Source: a virus. From it: a stretch of DNA of 64,000 nucleotides. The stretch lies in the IMG/VR virus record IMGVR_UViG_3300018476_000013, positions 1 to 64,000 of that record; one strand, written 5' to 3'. A program made the translations under genes and the position numbers. Numbering within the stretch: the stretch's first letter is position 1; each line of letters starts with the position of its first letter. Positions 4,865-31,847 of this stretch are shown here, piece after piece. The notes beneath the pieces are model-generated. The model worked only from the letters and a program-made list of their open reading frames with translations. It was not told where the DNA came from and did not search any database.

Positions 4865-6439
4865 ATGACGGTCATCTGCATGTCATCCGGCCACGGCAAG
4901 TACGTCCGCGGTGCCAGCGGTTACCTCGATGAAGTCAATGAAGCTCGCCGAGTTGTCGATGAAACGGCACGGCTGTTGAAGTCGGCTGGTGTTGAAACGA
5001 AGATCTACCACGATGACTGGAGCCACAGTCAGAACGAGAACCTCAATCGGATTGTCAACTGGCACAATGGGCAGTCCCGCACGCTTGATGTCAGCATCCA
5101 TTTCAACGCGTACCAGACCACGACCAAGCCGATGGGCACTGAGTGTCTGTACCTGACCCAGAAAGACCTGGCAAAGAAAGTGGCTGACGGCATTGCTCGC
5201 GCTACATCCCTGCCCAATCGCGGACCCAAGTACCGGGACAATCTATTCTTCCTTAATAGCACTGCTAAACCGAGCGTGCTGGTGGAAGTTGTGTTCGTCG
5301 ATAGCGTGACCGACTCGGAAACCTATGAAGAAGAATTCGCGGCCATCTGTGCTGAACTAGCATCAGCATTGTCCGGCAAAAAGATTGGAGCCGAACCACC
5401 AGTTGATGAGATCGATGAAACTGAACCGCCGCCGGTGGTGGAGATCCCCGAGGAAGAACCTGGCCGGCCGACCCTCGGGATCGGTGATGAAGGAGACCAT
5501 GTTGTTCAAGTGCAGACTCTGCTTGGCGTGTTCCCGGCGGATGGAGATTTCGGCCCGATCACCGATGCAGCAGTGCGCGGTTATCAAGCGGCTTATGGCG
5601 AGGGTGTGACGTGTGACGGCATCGTCGGTCCAAAGACGTGGGCTGCTCTCGATTACCTGGAACACGCCAAGGCTTCCGGCAATGATCGGATGCCGGCGGA
5701 TCAAGCCCGACGCATTGCACAGATCGCTGAGAAGTCAGCCATTGCCAAGTACGCATGGAAAGACCGAGGCAAGTTGCCATTGGGCTACACTGCCGGCATT
5801 GCCCAGTGCTTTGGATTGGCTGCCACACGGTTGATGCAGGGTCATCCCATCGCGACCACCGCTGCCCAAGCCGATCGCAATAGCACAGACCAGGATGCGC
5901 TGACATGGTACCGCAAGCAATTCCAGGCTGCGGGAATGGATAACACCCAGGATGGCATTGACACTCTACGACATCTGTTTGTGTTGCTACTGGGCCTGGG
6001 TGCTCGGGAAAGCAGCGGCCGTTATTGTGAAGGCCGTGACATGAGTGCCGACAACGTCAGTGCCGAAACGGCGGAAGCATCATTGTATCAGACCAGTTGG
6101 AATATTTATTCGTGCTCGTCATCCATCCCACCATTGCTGAATGAATATTGGGCTAACCCCAATGGCTTCCTGCCGACGTTCCAGAATGGTGTGACTTTGA
6201 AGAAGGATGACCTCGGCAACTTTGGTTCTGGTGATGGTGCCAAGTTTCAATTCCTCTCCAAGTACTCGCCGGCATTCCATGTCTTTGTGACCGGGGTCGG
6301 CTTGCGTTACCGGCGGCAGCATTGGGGACCGGTCAACCGCAGTGAGGTCGAGATACGGACCGAGGCCGATACCATGCTGCTGGAAGTCCAACATCTGCTC
6401 AGTGAAGACTCTGCGGAGAACCCGGATGCAATGGCTTAA
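4865..6439 (+). CDS. Endolysin: Amidase_3 N-acetylmuramoyl-L-alanine amidase + PG-binding domain + additional C-terminal domain
   Basis: SSGHG, E(VNE), SIHFNA, LVEVVFVD amidase motifs; DGDFGPIT...DGIVGPKTW PG-binding repeat. Confidence 0.85.
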   Translation: MTVICMSSGHGKYVRGASGYLDEVNEARRVVDETARLLKSAGVETKIYHDDWSHSQNENLNRIVNWHNGQSRTLDVSIHFNAYQTTTKPMGTECLYLTQKDLAKKVADGIARATSLPNRGPKYRDNLFFLNSTAKPSVLVEVVFVDSVTDSETYEEEFAAICAELASALSGKKIGAEPPVDEIDETEPPPVVEIPEEEPGRPTLGIGDEGDHVVQVQTLLGVFPADGDFGPITDAAVRGYQAAYGEGVTCDGIVGPKTWAALDYLEHAKASGNDRMPADQARRIAQIAEKSAIAKYAWKDRGKLPLGYTAGIAQCFGLAATRLMQGHPIATTAAQADRNSTDQDALTWYRKQFQAAGMDNTQDGIDTLRHLFVLLLGLGARESSGRYCEGRDMSADNVSAETAEASLYQTSWNIYSCSSSIPPLLNEYWANPNGFLPTFQNGVTLKKDDLGNFGSGDGAKFQFLSKYSPAFHVFVTGVGLRYRRQHWGPVNRSEVEIRTEADTMLLEVQHLLSEDSAENPDAMA

Positions 6440-12009: not shown

Positions 12010-12029
12010 CCCCAGACGGAGATTTGATT

Positions 12030-13055
12030 ATGGCTTCGGTACTTAGACAACTCCAGGCAGAGTGGAACGCGTTGGTTCCTGCAGCCCAGGCCCGTGGCAT
12101 CCGCCGCGTTAAGCTCCTGGGTCAGGGGGACATCCTGCGGGCACCCCTGGAGACCATTGCATATCGTCGCGCCAAGCTTGAATGGCTGCGGTCGTTGCTC
12201 GGTGGTTCCAGCCTGGCTGGCCTTGATGGTTTGCAGTTCGGTGTGGAGATCGAGGTGATCCTGCCCCGTGGCATGTCCCGCCGGGAAGCAGCAGCCAAGA
12301 TCACGGCGGCAGGTGTTGAATGCCACGAGGAATTGTATGGTCACACCACCCCCGCTGGTAAGTGGAAAGTGGTTACGGATGGTTCCTTGGGCTATGAACA
12401 AGGTGCAGAATTCGTGTCCCCTCCCCTTCGGGGTGAGGATGGGTTCAGGCAGATGCGGATTGTCTGTGATGCCCTGACGGCCATGAATGCCAGGATCACG
12501 GCCAAGTGTGGTTTCCATGTTCATGTGGATGTCGGCACTGAGCCGGTGGATTTTTTCAAGAACCTGGTTCGTTTGTATGCTTCGGCAGAAACCACGATCG
12601 ACAAGTTCATGCCGGCATCCCGCCGGGGTTCGGTCAACCCGTTCTGCCAGCCCACCCGGATCAACGATGCAGCCCTGACTGCAGCCACCAACATTCAGCA
12701 GGTGGCCACGGCCATTGGCCAGGACAACACCCGGGCACATGCCCGTAGTTCTCGTCGGTATCGCAAACTGAACCTGCAGTGCTTCTTCGTTTATGGCACG
12801 GTGGAATTCCGCCAGCATGGTGGAACATGTGACGCCCAGAAGGCAGCCAACTGGGTCCGCTTGTGCCTGCGCATGGTGCTGACGGCACGGGCCGGAGAAA
12901 AGACTGTGACCACGGTCGATGAATTGCTGGAGACGGTGGGTGCCGATGAAGCTGAGAAGGCATACTTCAGCAGCCGGGTGAACTACTTCAACCGGGCGGA
13001 AAATTTCGATCGGTTGTCGGATGCCAACTTCATTAATCGTCGGAGGCCAGTGTAA
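12030..13055 (+). CDS. Putative amidoligase (Amidoligase_2, COOH-NH2 ligase)
   Basis: FGVEIE, WKVVTDGSL, EFVSPPL, CGFHVHV, RYRKLN, TVEFRQH. Confidence 0.85.
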   Translation: MASVLRQLQAEWNALVPAAQARGIRRVKLLGQGDILRAPLETIAYRRAKLEWLRSLLGGSSLAGLDGLQFGVEIEVILPRGMSRREAAAKITAAGVECHEELYGHTTPAGKWKVVTDGSLGYEQGAEFVSPPLRGEDGFRQMRIVCDALTAMNARITAKCGFHVHVDVGTEPVDFFKNLVRLYASAETTIDKFMPASRRGSVNPFCQPTRINDAALTAATNIQQVATAIGQDNTRAHARSSRRYRKLNLQCFFVYGTVEFRQHGGTCDAQKAANWVRLCLRMVLTARAGEKTVTTVDELLETVGADEAEKAYFSSRVNYFNRAENFDRLSDANFINRRRPV

Positions 13056-13657
13056 TGGCTAAGATCAAAGTACCACGCCAACGCATTCAGAAGGGTCGGA
13101 CGAAAGTCCGGCCCTACAAGGCCCTGATGTGGTCGTATGGCTCGAACTGCAACATTGAACAGATGAAGCGCCGTTGTCCCAACGCGACACCAGTCGACAA
13201 ATTGCTGATCACGGGCACTTCCCTGGTTTTCCGGGGTGTGGCAGATGTGGTCATCAAGCCAGGTGTTGCAGCACCTGGGGCGTTGTGGAGGATCACTCGT
13301 GAGTGCGAGCAGTCCCTCGATTACTATGAGGGGATCGGCACCGGGCTTTATATGAAAAGGTTCTTCACGATCAACATCGATGGTCGGCCGGAAGAAGTTC
13401 TGTTCTACCAGATGAAAATGTCGGATGGTGTGATGCCGCCAACTGAAGCGTATGTTGAAACCATCGCGCGGGGTTACCACGATTTCGATATCGACCTGGA
13501 CTACCTGAACCGCGCACTAATGGAGTCGTGGAATGACAAGGAGGTTACACCCGTACTGAAGGAGCGCCATGTCAAAAGAGGCAAGCCGAAACTGGCAAGG
13601 GAAGTGAATGAATTTTTCTTGACAGAAGATGACTTACGTGAAGCGGGGGCTGTATGA
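13055..13657 (+). CDS. Gamma-glutamylcyclotransferase (GGCT) family protein
   Basis: YGSNCNIEQMKRRCP, LDYYEG; coupled to the amidoligase. Confidence 0.85.
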   Translation: MAKIKVPRQRIQKGRTKVRPYKALMWSYGSNCNIEQMKRRCPNATPVDKLLITGTSLVFRGVADVVIKPGVAAPGALWRITRECEQSLDYYEGIGTGLYMKRFFTINIDGRPEEVLFYQMKMSDGVMPPTEAYVETIARGYHDFDIDLDYLNRALMESWNDKEVTPVLKERHVKRGKPKLAREVNEFFLTEDDLREAGAV

Positions 13658-15445: not shown

Positions 15446-16201
15446 GTGAAGAAAATCTTAATGGCCACCGCTTTACTTGCTTTGGCGGCAGCACCTGCAT
15501 CTGCTGCTGTCATCGATACATTCGCCGTCACTGACTCGACTAGCACCCTGACGCTGTCGGCCGTGGTCCCCGGCGGCAATCAACCCCTGAACAACCCTTG
15601 CTTGATCTGCGGCACGCAGCAGCCGCAACAGCCGACAGGGTTCGGCTATAATAACTTCCAAGCCCAAGGCAACATCAGCGATTATCTGATGTTCTCGACG
15701 GCGACGGTTGGCGGCTCGCTTGCCCAGGATACCTTGGGCACCGGTTACCAGGTTGGTGATGGTTCGATCCTGCGCGCGTATCTGTTGGCGCAAGCATCGG
15801 GCACCACTTTCTCGGTTGGCATTGATGTCAATCAGACCAATGTCGCACAGACACTGGAGTCGTTTTACTTCCTGAACCTGACGGACCGCACGGTGCTGGC
15901 ATCCTATTCGCCGGGACCTGGCGGCACGCCATTGCCGGCGCCGAACAACGGCACTGGCTATCCGGACTACACGCTGAGTGGTTTCAACATTGACCGTGGT
16001 GATATTTCTGCGGGTGATGAAATCATTTTCTTCGCCCGTTGGTCAGGCGCCAATGACGGACCGGAAAGCTTTTTCCTCGTCGCCAATCCGGTTGCCGCGG
16101 TGCCTGAACTGTCTACATGGTTCATGATGATCCTCGGATTTGCTGGTTGTGGATTGATGGCCTACCGCAAGCGGGACGGCCTCAACTTCCGGGCGGTGTA
16201 A
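15446..16201 (+). CDS. PEP-CTERM (PEPxxWA-type) exosortase-target surface protein
   Basis: Signal peptide; C-terminal VPELSTWFMMILGFAGCGLMAYRKR. Confidence 0.85.
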   Translation: MKKILMATALLALAAAPASAAVIDTFAVTDSTSTLTLSAVVPGGNQPLNNPCLICGTQQPQQPTGFGYNNFQAQGNISDYLMFSTATVGGSLAQDTLGTGYQVGDGSILRAYLLAQASGTTFSVGIDVNQTNVAQTLESFYFLNLTDRTVLASYSPGPGGTPLPAPNNGTGYPDYTLSGFNIDRGDISAGDEIIFFARWSGANDGPESFFLVANPVAAVPELSTWFMMILGFAGCGLMAYRKRDGLNFRAV

Positions 16202-21577: not shown

Positions 21578-21772
21578 ATGGCAGCAGTAAAAAAGAAAAG
21601 GAAACGGGGTGGTGCTAGCATGCCCTGCCCCGAGTGTGGGTCTCATTCTCATGTGATCATCACCAAGAGGATAGATGACAAAGTTGAGCGGCAGCGGGAA
21701 TGCCTGGGTCGGCGGCCTCACAAATTTCACACTTACGAAGAGGTCAGTTATGAAGCTGTATCTAGCAGCTAG
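21578..21772 (+). CDS. NrdR-N-terminal-like Zn-ribbon protein
   Basis: MPCPECGS..VI.T....ERQREC....KFHTYE. Confidence 0.65.
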   Translation: MAAVKKKRKRGGASMPCPECGSHSHVIITKRIDDKVERQRECLGRRPHKFHTYEEVSYEAVSSS

Positions 21773-22154
21773 GTTCGCCAGGCGGGAAAAATTAGTAACC
21801 GACGCCATCCCATTCCTAGAAGAAGATGGTCACAAGATCACTTCACGATGGTTATGGGAAGAGGATGATGGAGGAGAAGGCGCGGCCCGGATCTGCCTGC
21901 AGGACATTGACAGGTCTGAGGCCGTGGTTCTTTTCACTGATCCAGTGGGGTCAAAGAATGCAGGTGGCGGTCGTTGGTTTGAAGCTGGATATGCTTACGC
22001 CAACAATCGCCGCCTGTTCATTGTGGGTGAACAAGAGGCCGTGTTCACTTACCTGCCCCTGATCACTGTTTGCCAGGACGTCGACCACTTACGGCGTGAA
22101 CTCGACAACTACAATACCGACCTCATTAAACATCTGGCGCGTCCACTCAGCTGA
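21750..22154 (+). CDS. Nucleoside 2-deoxyribosyltransferase/nucleotide hydrolase-like protein
   Basis: KLYLAARF, CLQDIDRSEAVV, GGRWFEAGYAYA. Confidence 0.8.
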   Translation: MKLYLAARFARREKLVTDAIPFLEEDGHKITSRWLWEEDDGGEGAARICLQDIDRSEAVVLFTDPVGSKNAGGGRWFEAGYAYANNRRLFIVGEQEAVFTYLPLITVCQDVDHLRRELDNYNTDLIKHLARPLS

Positions 22155-22517
22155 GGATTTCCAGGGCTCACGGTCAAGCGGGGGTGGAGTGATCACCCGC
22201 TTGATGCCCCTGGAGACAATGGACTTGGCGCATTCATTGCACGGAAACATCGTCACTGCTAATGTGCTGCCCTCTAGATCGAAGTGGGCATTGTCCAAGG
22301 CATTGCGTTCAGCGTGCTGGGTCATGGCGTACTTGGTATTCTTATCCAGCAACCGCTCAGGGCTGTCTTCTATGCCAGGCGGAAATCCATTGTAGCCGAT
22401 GGTGATGTTCCGGCGGTCTTTGCCGACAATGACTGCACCCACTCGCGTGGACGGGTCCTTGCTCCACACAGCTACATGATGGGCCAAAACAAAATATCGT
22501 TGATCCCAGTCGGTCAT
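22089..22517 (-). CDS. dCMP deaminase
   Basis: SKDPSTRVGAVI, GYNGFP, HAERNAL, PCNECAK. Confidence 0.92.
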   Translation of the reverse strand: MTDWDQRYFVLAHHVAVWSKDPSTRVGAVIVGKDRRNITIGYNGFPPGIEDSPERLLDKNTKYAMTQHAERNALDNAHFDLEGSTLAVTMFPCNECAKSIVSRGIKRVITPPPLDREPWKSSAEWTRQMFNEVGIVVVEFTP

Positions 22518-22690
22518 CAAACAAATCCCTTTTCTTCCGCCAGCCATTCAGGCATGGTGAAGGTCCCATCTTTGTTGTCCTCGACCTGGGACTTGGGCAC
22601 CCATTCCGTTTTGATCCCATCGAAAAGACGATACGCTTTTTCCGTTTCGCCTCGGAGCTCTGCCGCTATGTCGATAAGCTTTTCGGCCAT
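22517..22690 (-). CDS. Small conserved phage protein
   Basis: ETEKAY..DG...WVPKSQVE...MPEWLAEEKG. Confidence 0.6.
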   Translation of the reverse strand: MAEKLIDIAAELRGETEKAYRLFDGIKTEWVPKSQVEDNKDGTFTMPEWLAEEKGFV

Positions 22691-23058
22691 CACGCTACCA
22701 GATCCGAAAGGTCCGGGGCGGTCCAACCCATGGGCTTGACTACATCATGAGCCGATCCCCGCTTCGAGTCCGAACCATCGGCCTTGGCCTTGACTTTCTT
22801 CATGTTGGCTTCGTGAACCCGCTTCCATGCTTCATCAAAGTCAAAGCCGTGCAGGTACGCTGTGCCCAGGGCGACATAGACCAGATCGACCAAAGCATCG
22901 AGCTTGTCCTCTAATGGATACTCACAATATTCGGTCAGCTCCTCGGTCATGAATTTCAATCGGAAGGATGCCAGGTCATCCGGCAATTGCCGAGGGCCGT
23001 CAGTGTAGGCCAATCCGAATTTCTCGTGGAAATCTTTGATGTCAGAATAGAAGCTCAT
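22690..23058 (-). CDS. MazG-like / PRA-PH family NTP pyrophosphohydrolase
   Basis: EELTEY, DALVDLVYVALG, VHEANMKK, VVKP.GW.APDL. Confidence 0.88.
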   Translation of the reverse strand: MSFYSDIKDFHEKFGLAYTDGPRQLPDDLASFRLKFMTEELTEYCEYPLEDKLDALVDLVYVALGTAYLHGFDFDEAWKRVHEANMKKVKAKADGSDSKRGSAHDVVKPMGWTAPDLSDLVA

Positions 23059-24918: not shown

Positions 24919-25176
24919 ATGGACGTAGTAAAACTGACGGAAGAACGAGGTCAAGTCCATGGGGACTTTACCGACGTATCGGAGATCGCCCAAAGCTTAA
25001 AGGCCGTTGTCCGTAATGGCAAGTCATTCAATCAATTGACGAGGGTGCAGGTTGAAGGCCTCGACATGATCCTGCACAAGATCGCCCGGATCGTTTCGGG
25101 CAATGCCAACCACCATGATCATTGGGATGACGTCGCCGGGTATGCTCACATCGTATCGAAGAGGATCACCAAGTAA
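24919..25176 (+). CDS. DUF6378-like protein
   Basis: ERGQVHGDF...KIARIVSGN...DHWDDVAGYA. Confidence 0.75.
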   Translation: MDVVKLTEERGQVHGDFTDVSEIAQSLKAVVRNGKSFNQLTRVQVEGLDMILHKIARIVSGNANHHDHWDDVAGYAHIVSKRITK

Positions 25177-26543: not shown

Positions 26544-28045
26544 AGAAGCCAAAAGAAAAGCAATTGATTGCCGTGGGGATCACCTGCGGCATTGGTTCAT
26601 TGCTCGTGGGCGCCAAGGCCGCAGGGTTCAAGGTCGCGGGCAATGTGGAGTGGCGGAAATATTACCACCACCAGGACGAAACCGAGCGCAACACTTTCAC
26701 TGAGAATTTCCCTGGGGCGATCTTCCCCAACTCAGTGGAGCAGATGACGGAAGAAGAGTTCAGGAAGTTCAGCAACCCGGACATCGCTTTAGGCCATCCA
26801 GAATGCGGCAACTTCAGCGTGCTGAATGGCGCCCACAAGGACCGGCTCAACATGATGCTGGACCCTGCTGACATCCCGCTCTTCGTCGATCTGGTAGCCA
26901 AGCTGAAGCCCAGGTTCTTCGTGATGGACGACCTGCCCAAGTCCTTCATGGCGTACCCGATGGAAAAGTACGCAGAGAAATTGCCGGACTATGACCTGTA
27001 TCCGGAATGGATCAGCAACTGGGGCTACGGCAACGTCCAGAAGAACCGGAACCGGATGTTCATGCTGGGCGCGCTGCGGGCCGAGCGGTGGGCTTTCCGG
27101 CCGGGTGAGCAGGAACATACCCTGACCGTGGAAGATGTCATCGGTGACCTTGCTAAGCCATCTGTGAGGGGCAATATGCCCAATCATGACCCCCACGACC
27201 TGAAGTCCGTTTGTGCCAAGGCCCTGAACCTGGGTGAGTGGCGGAAACGGAATACCTGGGGCGAGGTCCAGAAGTACTTCGCCGACAAGGGCGGCGGGTT
27301 CACGCTGGAATATACCAGGGATGACGGCAAGCGGCTGAAGAGGATCGGCTTCCTCAAGGGCCATTGGGACGGGCCATCGCATGTGCTGACTGGTGGCAAT
27401 GCCATCCTGCACCACAAGCGCAATGAACCCTACACCATCCGGGAGCGGGCGCGCATTCAGGGCTTCCCTGATGACTTCGTCTTCTATGGTGCCAAGCTGA
27501 ACCCCAAGGGGGAATGGGAGCATGATGGTGACGGCACCATGGTCAAGCAGACCGGCAAGGCCATGCCAGTGCAGTTTGCTGAATATGTGTCCAAGCAGAT
27601 TGCTGCATTCATCAACAAGGAAGAGTTCGAGTCCAGTGGCCGCCGGGTGATCCCGCCCAATGAATACGTCGACCAGGCCAAGCAATGGTACTGCCAGAAT
27701 GTCGGCTATTCAGTGCAGAAGAAAGCATGTGGGGAATGCTGGCTCTTCAACAAATGCAGCATCAGGTCCGAGAAATACCAAATCGGTCCGCGCGCGCATA
27801 CCACAAAATCCGTTGTGGAAGAATGCCCCACAAATCAGCGAATTACGGGGGCTGTTTTAGGGGGAAATACTAGGACGCGTCAAGGGGGGCTCATGCCCTC
27901 TGCCAAAAAGCCTAATGAAATCAAGGTCCGTGAGGCCAAGAACACGGGAGGGACCAATAAAAAAACGCCCTCCCGAGATCCCCGAACTGGCCAGTCCAGG
28001 AAAACTGTCCATCAACCCATCGAAACCACCATTGAAGAGTTTTGA
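26540..28045 (+). CDS. Atypical DNA cytosine-C5 methyltransferase homologue (possible carboxymethyltransferase)
   Basis: Motif I CGIG, IV GHPECGNFS, VIII QKNRNR, IX RERARIQGFPDDF; VI is DDL and X is QTGKAM. Confidence 0.85.
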   Translation: MKKPKEKQLIAVGITCGIGSLLVGAKAAGFKVAGNVEWRKYYHHQDETERNTFTENFPGAIFPNSVEQMTEEEFRKFSNPDIALGHPECGNFSVLNGAHKDRLNMMLDPADIPLFVDLVAKLKPRFFVMDDLPKSFMAYPMEKYAEKLPDYDLYPEWISNWGYGNVQKNRNRMFMLGALRAERWAFRPGEQEHTLTVEDVIGDLAKPSVRGNMPNHDPHDLKSVCAKALNLGEWRKRNTWGEVQKYFADKGGGFTLEYTRDDGKRLKRIGFLKGHWDGPSHVLTGGNAILHHKRNEPYTIRERARIQGFPDDFVFYGAKLNPKGEWEHDGDGTMVKQTGKAMPVQFAEYVSKQIAAFINKEEFESSGRRVIPPNEYVDQAKQWYCQNVGYSVQKKACGECWLFNKCSIRSEKYQIGPRAHTTKSVVEECPTNQRITGAVLGGNTRTRQGGLMPSAKKPNEIKVREAKNTGGTNKKTPSRDPRTGQSRKTVHQPIETTIEEF

Positions 28046-28066: not shown

Positions 28067-28963
28067 ATGCACGGCGAGAAAGTTCACATTGTCAAGGGGC
28101 AGACCCCCGCTGATTATCACTGCACCTGCAAATTCTGCCAGAAGGCCCTGGGGGAATTGTTGAAGCCTGATGGGACATATTACAGCCGGCTGGAGCGCCG
28201 GAAGTATTATGACCCCGCTGAGTCGGGCAAGAAGGAAGGGGCGCACATTGCCAAGACCCCGCTCCACATTGCCCGCTGGGCCATCCAGAACTATTCTAAA
28301 CCAGGTGACTGGGTTCTTGATCCGACCATCGGCGCAGGCACCACGGCCGTCGAGGCCATCACCCAAGGCCGCAACGTGGCCGGAATGGAAATCGAATTCG
28401 GCGAAGTGCTGAAGAAGAATATCCAGGCCGCACTGGTACTGGCCAATGGGTCGAAGCCCAAAGCCAAGATCGGCCATGGCGATGCCCGCAACATCAGTGC
28501 CTTCCTCGACAAGGCCAAAGTTGAGAAGGTGCAGTTGGTCATCAACAATCCACCCTACTCAGGCGATGCCTCGATGCCGTCGCCCTCCAAGGAAGGACGG
28601 GGTGCCGCTTACCGGGACAAGGAAACCTATTTTTTCTACGACAAGTCCCTGCCGAACTTGGCGTTCCTGAAAGAGGGCCAAGAGTATTGGGATGAGATGA
28701 CAAAAATCTACAAGGCATGTGCTGACCGACTTGAAGTCGGCGGTCACTTCGTCATCGGCATTAAGGACATGAGCAAGAAGAAGCAGCCTTATCTTCTGCA
28801 CAAGATGTTCTGTGAAATCCTGGAAGAGATGAAGTTAAAATTTGTTGGCACGGCGTTCCTGAACCATTACCCTCGAACCCTTCACTTGAACACGTGCGAG
28901 AAGTTTTATGGCTTCAAGCCGCCGTTCTTCCAGACCATCAACGTATTTAAGAAAGCAAAGTAA
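28067..28963 (+). CDS. N6-adenine/N4-cytosine methyltransferase
   Basis: VLDPTIGAGTT (motif I) preceding NNPPY (motif IV). Confidence 0.85.
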   Translation: MHGEKVHIVKGQTPADYHCTCKFCQKALGELLKPDGTYYSRLERRKYYDPAESGKKEGAHIAKTPLHIARWAIQNYSKPGDWVLDPTIGAGTTAVEAITQGRNVAGMEIEFGEVLKKNIQAALVLANGSKPKAKIGHGDARNISAFLDKAKVEKVQLVINNPPYSGDASMPSPSKEGRGAAYRDKETYFFYDKSLPNLAFLKEGQEYWDEMTKIYKACADRLEVGGHFVIGIKDMSKKKQPYLLHKMFCEILEEMKLKFVGTAFLNHYPRTLHLNTCEKFYGFKPPFFQTINVFKKAK

Positions 28964-30820: not shown

Positions 30821-31005
30821 CTGGTTACCCAAAAGGAGAATTCCCTGAGATCGTTTACCAAGGGGGTCAGACAGGTTGGTGTCTGACATCCCATAAGAGT
30901 TATGAGTTCGAAGACCACATGGAAGCAGTTATTGCTTTGTTGCCGGAAGGGCCGGTTAAAGAAAACCAGATCGAGTGGTTCAAAGAACTCAAGAGGCGGA
31001 AATGA
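30817..31005 (+). CDS. Hypothetical protein
   Basis: ATGA-coupled on both sides. Confidence 0.5.
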   Translation: MTGYPKGEFPEIVYQGGQTGWCLTSHKSYEFEDHMEAVIALLPEGPVKENQIEWFKELKRRK

Positions 31006-31847
31006 AATACCTCGGCGAATATCTGTCTTTCAAACCTGTTGCCAGATTGATCGAAGGCCAGATCAAGGAAGCACCCCCTGTCCGCACAGAACGCTGGCAG
31101 GGGGTGGCGCATAACCAGGACACGCGTGAACTGCTGAACGCCTCATTCATGGTGGATCTGCAGTGCATCGAGGATCTGGATCATTGGCGGAAGGACATCA
31201 AGACCAATCTGCCTTGGGCTGATGACCACTTCATGGAGCGGATCGGCGGCCAGCCATTGAACCCTGGTGTTCAGTGGGCGAACTGGCCGTGGTCCCGGTC
31301 AGCAGCCAACTTCAAGCAGGACAGGTTCAATCATACCTACATGGAAAGGCTCTGGCCCAAGTTTGCCCGCCGGACTGCTGATGGCCGGTTGCCGATGGGC
31401 AAGGGTGCAAGGAAGTATCCGCAGACAGACAACCGGCCAAAGCTGGGGGTCGGCTGGGCTTATGGGGACTTGCTGGATCTGGTGGAGTTGCTGGTCAAAG
31501 AACCCCACACTCGCCAGGGATGGATACCGCTGTTCTTCCCTGAAGATACGGGCATCGGGGATGGCGGCCGCAAGCCCTGCACCCTTGGCTATCAGATCAT
31601 TGTCCGTGATGGCAGAGCCCATATCTATTATCCCCTGCGGTCATGTGACTTCATCCGGCACTGGGCAGATGATTGCTACTTGGCTGTGCGCCTGTTGCTG
31701 TGGGTCATCGATGAATGCCGCAAGAGGTCGGAGTTCTGGAAGAACATCGCACCAGGCACTTATTCGATGCACATGACTTCTCTTCACATCTTTGAAACGG
31801 ATCTTAAGACCAATGAGCAAGCCGAGGCCACCGCAACAAGTATTTGA
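31002..31847 (+). CDS. Thymidylate-synthase-fold enzyme, likely dCMP (hydroxy)methylase
   Basis: TRQ, catalytic PC (RKPCT), RSCD..D, SLHIF. Confidence 0.85.
   Translation: MKYLGEYLSFKPVARLIEGQIKEAPPVRTERWQGVAHNQDTRELLNASFMVDLQCIEDLDHWRKDIKTNLPWADDHFMERIGGQPLNPGVQWANWPWSRSAANFKQDRFNHTYMERLWPKFARRTADGRLPMGKGARKYPQTDNRPKLGVGWAYGDLLDLVELLVKEPHTRQGWIPLFFPEDTGIGDGGRKPCTLGYQIIVRDGRAHIYYPLRSCDFIRHWADDCYLAVRLLLWVIDECRKRSEFWKNIAPGTYSMHMTSLHIFETDLKTNEQAEATATSI

Follow-up and report, generated by a model that had tools for sequence, protein, structure and literature searches.

What reaction does a homologue of the DNA cytosine-C5 methyltransferases (C5-MTases) catalyze when the Glu-Asn-Val (ENV) triplet of its motif VI has been exchanged for Asp-Asp-Leu (DDL)? 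The question was raised by an open reading frame (ORF) of the IMG/VR virus record IMGVR_UViG_3300018476_000013, a 78.3-kb record estimated to be 92% complete, most of which is covered by the analyzed stretch of 64,000 nucleotides (positions 1 to 64,000, hereafter the window). The original prediction was that the enzyme may act on uracil or on an already modified cytosine rather than on cytosine. We rank first, with a probability of about 40%, another reading: a carboxyalkyl transfer like that performed by the phage enzyme CmoX, followed by glutamine-dependent amidation. It was placed ahead of the others because experiments provide a precedent for each of its steps, with the same residues and the same order of genes. 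Judged from sequence comparisons, we tentatively take the MTase-like ORF to encode an active, specialized, CmoX-like DNA cytosine-C5 transferase and not a decayed methyltransferase; the conserved phage enzyme group with the DDL-type motif probably attaches something larger than a methyl group to the phage DNA.

The reading frame and two kinds of alignment confirmed the DDL triplet. The codons GAC GAC CTG are directly preceded by an ATG (26924–26926), all in frame, within the stretch PRFFVMDDLPKS. Both phmmer and the family profile aligned the segment FFVMDDLP with FFLAENV of M.HaeIII (1dct) and of the prophage enzyme 3g7u, hence D130-D131-L132 occupy the ENV positions. Motif I had also been called unusual, and it is: it reads GITCGIGS, compared with FxGxGG in canonical C5-MTases. 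The ORF belongs to the PF00145 family (cut-off 22 bits) by its fold and its Cys nucleophile; the ENV of motif VI and the Gly-Asn of motif X are absent from it. In its longer form motif IV reads GHPECGNFS, and motif X lies in the context TGKAMP. An AlphaFold model based on 40 homologues reached a mean predicted local distance difference test (pLDDT) value of 85.7 and a predicted template modeling (pTM) score of 0.81, with the tail (422–501) below 50. Foldseek searches with this model gave M.HaeIII as the best match (E 9e-18), followed by 3g7u, MET1 and M.HhaI, and CmoX (8YF3) at rank 14; the highest profile score versus any solved chain was only 55.7 bits. Fold, motif order, Cys nucleophile, the RxR of motif VIII and the RE..QGFP of motif IX are shared with M.HaeIII, M.HhaI and 3g7u, whereas motifs I, IV, VI and X are altered here at residues that contact the cofactor or the base.

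The alignments showed the predicted pocket to be rebuilt at three co-varying positions, Glu to Asp130, Gln to Gly90 and Asn to Lys340, and the apparatus expected for Cys-C6 covalent chemistry on an acid-read base to be intact and strongly conserved. A word-index search retrieved 618 homologues of the MTase-like protein, the best 120 of which were all at least 52% identical to it; motif VI was DDL in 107 and DNL in 7 of these 120 closest homologues. In an alignment of 40 sequences the invariant residues comprised H86, C89 and G90 of motif IV, D130 and L132 of motif VI (D131 being at least 90% conserved), Q167, R170 and R172 of motif VIII, R301 and E302 of motif IX, G339 and K340 of motif X, and the four cysteines C385, C397, C400 and C406. 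Profile searches of 1.84 billion cluster representatives gave 121 clusters (50% identity) at E ≤ 1e-30; relaxing the threshold to E ≤ 1e-10 raised the number to 449. Among the species genomes (n = 185,579) just two true relatives were found, both in bins of metagenome-assembled genomes and one of them on a phage-sized contig of 75 kb. The clade is large and almost exclusively viral. Close relatives in cultured phages were not found, a megablast search with 6 kb remaining without a match and tblastn giving three records at 25–27% identity.

Co-variation of DDL with the GKA of motif X, the check proposed together with the original prediction, was followed in 268 family proteins aligned to the profile, in 210 of which both motifs were readable. 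Motif VI fitted D[DNE][LM] in 202 of the 210 proteins and motif X had K or R in 203; an Asp-first motif VI was accompanied by Lys/Arg in motif X in 197 of 202 cases. The motif VI/X pairs were DD+K (132), DN+K (51), DN+R (10) and DE+K (4), the Glu-type pairs being restricted to EN+K (4), EN+R (2) and a single canonical EN+N; the remainder were a few other singletons. The second Asp of motif VI is replaced by Asn in about a quarter of the family and is, on these counts, a sub-clade refinement. As read from the alignments, the family is recognizable by D-[D/N]-L in combination with a Gly that follows the catalytic Cys and a basic residue, Lys/Arg, in motif X. The change in motif VI, originally considered on its own, is real and conserved; Gly90 and Lys340 belong to the same signature. 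One related locus (L056, 4389–6826) carries two tandem MTase-like paralogues, both with DNL and the motif X Lys, beside one AsnB-like and one thymidylate synthase (TS)-fold gene.

These counts bear directly on the suspicion that an ORF without the canonical ENV and GN motifs might be an inactive pseudo-enzyme, retained as a DNA-binding or scaffold protein. The nucleophile Cys is invariant, all the other catalytic motifs are conserved, and the model predicts a confident fold with an intact pocket. Moreover, at least 12 relatives (P0122, P0124, P0127, P0130, P0145, P0147, P0171, P0175, P0013, P0056, P0089 and P0093) contain inteins, some with homing-endonuclease-type domains, between E88 and C89, a site equivalent to 26801–26806 of the window. 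The intein junctions read GHPE/C...HN/CGxxS. With the insertion placed between Glu88 and Cys89, the catalytic Cys doubles as the +1 splice nucleophile, and inteins lying exactly at the catalytic Cys argue against a pseudo-enzyme. Conservation and inteins together rule out sporadic degeneration, leaving a pseudo-enzyme with hardly any probability.

Two of the three altered positions have been studied in other enzymes. In M.HhaI, Gln82 (the residue after the Cys) and Asn304 sterically crowd the transferable group, and the Q82A and N304A substitutions lowered methyl transfer and raised the transfer of larger groups (Lukinavicius et al. 2012). SpCmoX has Arg350 in place of the motif X Asn (N304 of M.HhaI); this Arg contacts the carboxyl of carboxy-S-adenosylmethionine (Cx-SAM), the R350N variant is inactive, and the wild-type enzyme uses Cx-SAM only (PMC12783734). 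The engineered M.MpeI N374K also takes Cx-SAM (as cited in Yang 2025, PMC12783734). The enzyme from the window is altered at the same two pocket positions as these M.MpeI and M.HhaI variants and shares the Asn-to-Lys exchange with M.MpeI N374K. The variants, however, are laboratory-made and keep the Glu of ENV; in the present family the exchanges occur naturally, are invariant and come with a third one, Glu to Asp. Because the Gly and Lys occupy the positions that control, in M.HhaI and CmoX, how large and how charged the transferred group can be, the signature points to an altered donor at least as strongly as to an altered base.

The same comparison makes it unlikely that the ORF encodes an ordinary 5-methylcytosine methyltransferase dependent on S-adenosylmethionine (SAM), with drifted motifs and unrelated neighbors. 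The PF00145 fold, the catalytic Cys and the intact motifs VIII and IX would suit such an enzyme, as would the source annotations (DNA cytosine methyltransferase) and the frequent occurrence of orphan MTases, sometimes fused together, in phages. Against this, the three altered positions are invariant or co-vary in hundreds of sequences, changes at two of them cut methyl transfer by M.HhaI, the Arg-bearing CmoX ignores SAM, and the synteny with the AsnB-like and TS-fold genes is strict.

The uracil target proposed originally found no support. This alternative, taken here to include 5-hydroxymethyluracil in DNA and free nucleotides, has in its favor the change of the motif VI Glu that reads N3/N4 of cytosine, and the deoxycytidine monophosphate (dCMP) deaminase could feed a pool of deoxyuridine or 5-hydroxymethyldeoxyuridine. 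The residue put in place of Glu is, however, again acidic, and enzymes of the TS family are specific for cytosine when ThyA-177 is Asp and for uracil when it is Asn; with the motif VI acid retained as Asp, a shift to uracil is not what this precedent indicates. The invariant arginines of motif VIII, which hold O2 and the phosphate in C5-MTases, speak against this alternative as well, and the target-recognition region of about 120 residues, the four-Cys finger and the basic tail fit binding of DNA. We consider this alternative very improbable.

The genes around the MTase-like ORF were compared in 65 virus loci with relatives down to 24% identity. The loci were found with alignment queries, a single-protein query having given none, and the synteny counts rest on the 52 of them in which the MTase-like gene has the motif VI Asp. 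A gene module of three fixed genes was seen, the synteny of the MTase-like gene with the AsnB-like and TS-fold genes being maintained in relatives down to 35% identity. The features of the window are collected in Table 1; they include the dCMP deaminase and the TS-fold gene, both of which had been named in the original prediction and are present.

Table 1. Position of the MTase-like gene, its motifs and its neighbors in the window (aa, amino acids).
Feature	Position	Strand	Remarks
C5-MTase-fold protein, 501 aa	26540..28045	+	PF00145 over residues 15-354, 69.8 bits; catalytic domain 1-360, four-Cys finger 385-406, disordered basic tail 422-501
Motif I, GITCGIGS	26576..26599	+	Thr15 where the adenine-stacking Phe sits (alignment to SpCmoX F25)
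Motif IV, GHPECG	26792..26809	+	Catalytic Cys89; Glu for the preceding Pro, Gly90 for the canonical Gln after it
Motif VI, D130-D131-L132 in the place of ENV	26927..26935	+	GAC 26927-26929, GAC 26930-26932, CTG 26933-26935
Motif X, G339-K340-A341	27554..27562	+	Lys for the canonical Asn (M.HhaI N304, SpCmoX R350)
Putative zinc finger	27692..27757	+	Invariant C385, C397, C400, C406
AsnB-like glutamine-dependent amidotransferase/amide ligase, 455 aa	25176..26543	+	PF00733, 132 bits; GATase_6/7
DUF6378 protein	24919..25176	+	PF19905; translationally coupled to the AsnB-like gene
Amino-methyltransferase	28067..28963	+	PF01555, 63 bits; SAM motif DPTIGAGTT, NPPY
Divergent TS-fold enzyme	30975..31847	+	phrog_160 at 1.5e-22; best solved relative MilA (cytidine monophosphate hydroxymethylase, weak match)
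dCMP deaminase	22089..22547	-	PF00383, 77.4 bits
MazG-like nucleotide pyrophosphohydrolase	22690..23058	-	phrog_671 at 1.4e-24
SNF2 helicase		opposite to the MTase-like gene	

In 40 of the 52 loci the gene immediately upstream of the MTase-like one is AsnB-like, and in the window the stop of the AsnB-like gene overlaps the MTase-like start. The AsnB-like product has the N-terminal nucleophile Cys2 (MCGW start) and an SGGLDS PP-loop, as in the glutamine-dependent asparagine synthetase family. The four-Cys finger of the MTase-like protein and the upstream AsnB-like gene go together, with about two exceptions each way among the 65 loci; the finger may dock the amidotransferase or add DNA binding. 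In 18 of the first 46 loci the AsnB-like gene is itself preceded by a DUF6378 gene. The amino-methyltransferase (amino-MTase) gene adjoins the MTase-like gene in about 20 loci and is fused to its C-terminus in 11 of the 268 family proteins (35–52% identity to the window gene; P0075, P0121, P0123, P0124, P0126, P0136, P0140-P0142 and P0148 among them), a hint that the two enzymes are functionally connected or at least act together on one and the same DNA.

Systems that pair an Asn-synthase-family ligase with a C5-MTase homologue whose motif X residue is basic have been known since 2025. In Synechococcus phage S-B43, CmoA is a Cx-SAM synthase, CmoX is a C5-MTase homologue that makes 5-carboxymethylcytosine (PDB 8YF3), and CmoY, a ligase of the Asn-synthase family, adds glycine (Yang et al., Nat Commun December 2025, PMC12783734). 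The S-B43 genes overlap in the order CmoA, CmoY, CmoX. The MTase-like protein resembles CmoX in its C5-MTase fold, catalytic Cys, basic motif X residue, small residue after the Cys and phage origin; likewise, an Asn-synthase-family ligase gene with an overlapping frame lies immediately upstream in both, AsnB-like here and CmoY in S-B43. Motifs IV, VI and X of SpCmoX read GSPPCS, AENV and VGRMVP, with Ser following the Cys. Unlike CmoX, the protein from the window has Lys and not Arg in motif X, Asp and not Glu in motif VI, HPEC and not SPPC in motif IV, and Thr and not Phe in motif I; it also carries a four-Cys finger and a basic tail, its ligase has a glutaminase domain, its TS-fold partner is constant, and CmoA is absent. 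Yang et al. searched for SPPC and Arg350 and reported the active-site Glu as conserved (PMC12783734). Here the position of M.HhaI Asn304 is basic, being occupied by Lys340 instead of Arg350, and the two other positions hold GHPEC and Asp130. The DDL clade lies outside that screen, since the screen needed SPPC and Arg350. It is also outside the published definition of CmoX, from which it differs in four catalytic motifs, cofactor supply and partners, and there is a real chance that its chemistry is new.

In the carboxyalkyl transfer that we favor, Cys89 would add to C6 of the flipped cytosine-type base, Asp130 would still read and protonate N3/N4 from one methylene further back, and Gly90 and Lys340 would make the site for the transferable group both larger and charged. 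From such an enlarged, charged pocket we propose that a carboxylate-bearing alkyl and not a methyl group is moved onto C5, DDL being part of the pocket adaptation. To our knowledge, the only known natural candidate for a carboxylate-bearing donor group is carboxymethyl from Cx-SAM. Carboxymethyl from Cx-SAM supplied by the host would be the group transferred, and the upstream AsnB-like enzyme would adenylate the carboxylate and amidate it with glutamine-derived ammonia. The end product would be 5-carbamoylmethylcytosine in the phage DNA, protecting it against host nucleases. Host CmoA alone was enough for CmoX activity in E. coli (PMC12783734). Among the ligases associated with CmoX, the same authors described a large class that possesses a glutaminase domain, for which ammonia was the predicted amine and which they could not purify (PMC12783734). 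The cofactor pocket of the MTase-like protein keeps Glu37 and Trp38, which the alignment places at the ribose-binding Glu47 and the stacking Phe48 of SpCmoX.

Several results weigh against this scheme. CmoA (TIGR00740) was detected in none of 54 virus records (this genome and 53 related ones, 18 of them at least 90% complete), and the S-B43 CmoA used as a positive control was found at 2.5e-34; in the published survey, by comparison, the contigs of the 5615 CmoX genes held 4257 CmoA genes (PMC12783734). The family and SpCmoX are no more than distant relatives (hhalign probability 68%, E 4.7e-5), and the AsnB-like protein is 25% identical to SpCmoY over 127 residues, in the PP-loop region only. 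Contacts to the SAM adenine are changed, Phe25 of SpCmoX corresponding to Thr15 in motif I and Asp69 to Ser65 in motif III. CmoX keeps the motif VI Glu, so the exchange of Glu for Asp is not needed for the use of Cx-SAM. Finally, the constant dCMP-type TS-fold gene, to which nothing in the CmoX system corresponds, and the dCMP deaminase suggest that C5 of the cytosine may be occupied beforehand; if C5 in the phage DNA is already substituted, an alkyl transfer to this position is impossible as a reaction.

The TS-fold partner deserves attention for this reason. It lies on the same strand and within 4.8 kb of the MTase-like gene, often overlapping it, in 48 of the 52 loci; in the other four the contig breaks off no more than 850 bases from the MTase-like gene. 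Where a relative has no AsnB, the TS-fold gene still touches the MTase-like gene as its sole constant partner. The Pfam thymidylate synthase search of the genome was negative, and the gene was seen only via PHROGs and the weak MilA match. All TS-fold homologues adjacent to MTase-like genes have the catalytic Cys (Cys146), Asp at ThyA-177, Asp at 169 and Arg at 143, and they conserve the KPCTLGYQ and RSCD...DD motifs; further members of the clade are encoded at 5911–6780 of L093 and 5929–6777 of L094. According to the published residue rules for the TS family, Asp at ThyA-177 denotes dCMP specificity, Asp/Glu at 143 the hydroxymethylases, and Asn at 169 the 5-hydroxy-dCMP synthases. By these residues the clade is of the dCMP type. 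Its product is not assignable from the rules, because Arg143 with Asp169 fits neither the hydroxymethyl nor the 5-hydroxy rule; the identity of a 5-hydroxy-dCMP synthase was ruled out by the retained Asp169.

The same Arg143/Asp177/Asp169 clade is present in cultured phages (116 records), in most cases under the annotation thymidylate synthase; examples are phages of Gordonia, the Mycobacterium phages Muddy and FF47, Serratia phage Serbin, Pseudomonas phage PMBT14 and Brevundimonas phage Strzyga. There it stands beside a tmpK-like kinase, a nucleoside triphosphate pyrophosphatase (NTP-PPase), ThyX and a dCMP deaminase, without an MTase-like gene, a setting that looks like a cytosine-replacement kit. 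In another locus (L068, 8829–10740), an MTase gene with a canonical Glu-Asn-Leu motif VI and a motif X Asn still overlaps the same Arg143/Asp177 TS-fold gene. From this arrangement, the TS coupling predates, or is independent of, the Asp/Lys rewiring.

Such a partner leads to the second-ranked reading, the tailoring of a pre-made modified cytosine, which is possible but less probable than the carboxyalkyl transfer. The TS-fold enzyme would make 5-hydroxymethyl-dCMP or another 5-substituted dCMP that is incorporated into the phage DNA. Addition of Cys89 at C6 would then activate the base, Lys340 would aid the departure of the 5-CH2-OH oxygen, and an amine or amino acid would join the exocyclic methylene, the shorter Asp130 and Gly90 making room for the 5-substituent. 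Where the added group has a carboxylate, the AsnB-like enzyme would amidate it. In other words, the MTase-like enzyme would derivatize a 5-substituted cytosine by swapping its hydroxyl for an amine or amino acid, and the AsnB-like enzyme and the amino-MTase would finish a hypermodified base, a course of events to which we give only limited credence. This reading owes its second place to the fact that it alone explains both the obligatory TS-fold partner and the missing CmoA.

The already modified cytosine of the original prediction would be the substrate in this reading, and its support is contextual: the proximity of the TS-fold gene and the dCMP deaminase, which is present in 15 of the 18 near-complete related genomes. 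The TS homologues have the catalytic Cys, Asp177, Asp169 and a polar residue at 143. A MazG-like pyrophosphatase is also encoded in this genome; its homologue appeared in 5 of the 18 relatives by a single-sequence search too insensitive to be weighed. The trio of TS-fold enzyme, dCMP deaminase and pyrophosphatase was enriched on modified-cytosine contigs in MetaGPA (PMC8670742), and the cultured phages carry the same TS clade among the genes of a classical replacement kit, with a kinase, an NTP-PPase, ThyX and a deaminase. Work on M.MpeI has demonstrated that C5-MTases form covalent complexes with 5-hydroxymethylcytosine (5hmC) and can remove its hydroxymethyl group, and that 5-substituents clash with the closed catalytic loop when Glu fixes the base. 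The shorter Asp and the Gly in the loop would relieve such a clash, and the SAM adenine contacts are partly lost. The arrangement resembles T4-type cytosine replacement, which combines a dCMP hydroxymethylase with a tailoring enzyme acting on DNA, and the 5hmC carbamoyltransferase contigs of MetaGPA, in which a dCMP-type TS-fold enzyme, a dCMP deaminase and a pyrophosphatase also stand beside a DNA-acting enzyme. Unlike there, the DNA-acting partner in the window is a C5-MTase-fold protein with an amidotransferase and not a glycosyl- or carbamoyltransferase, and the TS-fold enzyme has Arg, not Asp/Glu, at ThyA-143.

On the other side, no natural enzyme catalyzing this kind of tailoring is known. 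AsnB-type enzymes require a carboxylate, which 5hmC does not offer, and the conserved ribose-binding Glu and GxG of the cofactor pocket fit an adenosyl cofactor. No deoxynucleoside monophosphate kinase was detected in this genome with PF02223 and a phage tmpK query, a weak test, as the hidden Markov model sees a known phage tmpK at about 16 bits. The L068 locus, with its canonical Glu-plus-Asn MTase beside the same TS-fold gene, indicates that TS adjacency alone implies no altered chemistry. As a variant of this reading, the TS-fold enzyme (Arg143) and the MTase-like enzyme (Lys340) may install the same anionic two-carbon group before and after replication, respectively, without CmoA.

Natural 5-carboxymethylcytosine and its amide derivatives were described in December 2025 for one enzyme type only, with Arg, Glu, SPPC and CmoA (PMC12783734). 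The window reveals a second clade with a different active site, a glutaminase-bearing ligase, no CmoA and an obligatory dCMP-type TS-fold partner. If the carboxyalkyl transfer is the correct reading, the clade makes a new hypermodified cytosine (5-carbamoylmethylcytosine or a relative) by means of host Cx-SAM; if tailoring is, the C5-MTase fold has acquired a new type of reaction on 5-substituted cytosines. Either would be of practical interest for DNA labeling, sequencing chemistry and the understanding of phage escape from restriction, and the co-varying Asp/Gly/Lys triad provides a simple sequence signature for locating such enzymes.

Three further observations concern other parts of the window. 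A 159-aa protein (21675–22154) that by eye is nucleoside 2-deoxyribosyltransferase-like, with no match in Pfam or PHROGs, is encoded next to the dCMP deaminase, MazG-like and TSCPD-domain genes. At 12024–13657 an AIG2/gamma-glutamyl cyclotransferase-like gene comes after an Amidoligase_2 gene (PF12224, 138 bits), and the same pair was found near the module in another locus (L022); it may represent another amide-forming or amide-removing step. A phage protein encoded at 15446–16201, which has a signal peptide and, at its C-terminus, a PEP-CTERM-like anchor, hints at a Gram-negative host with an exosortase.

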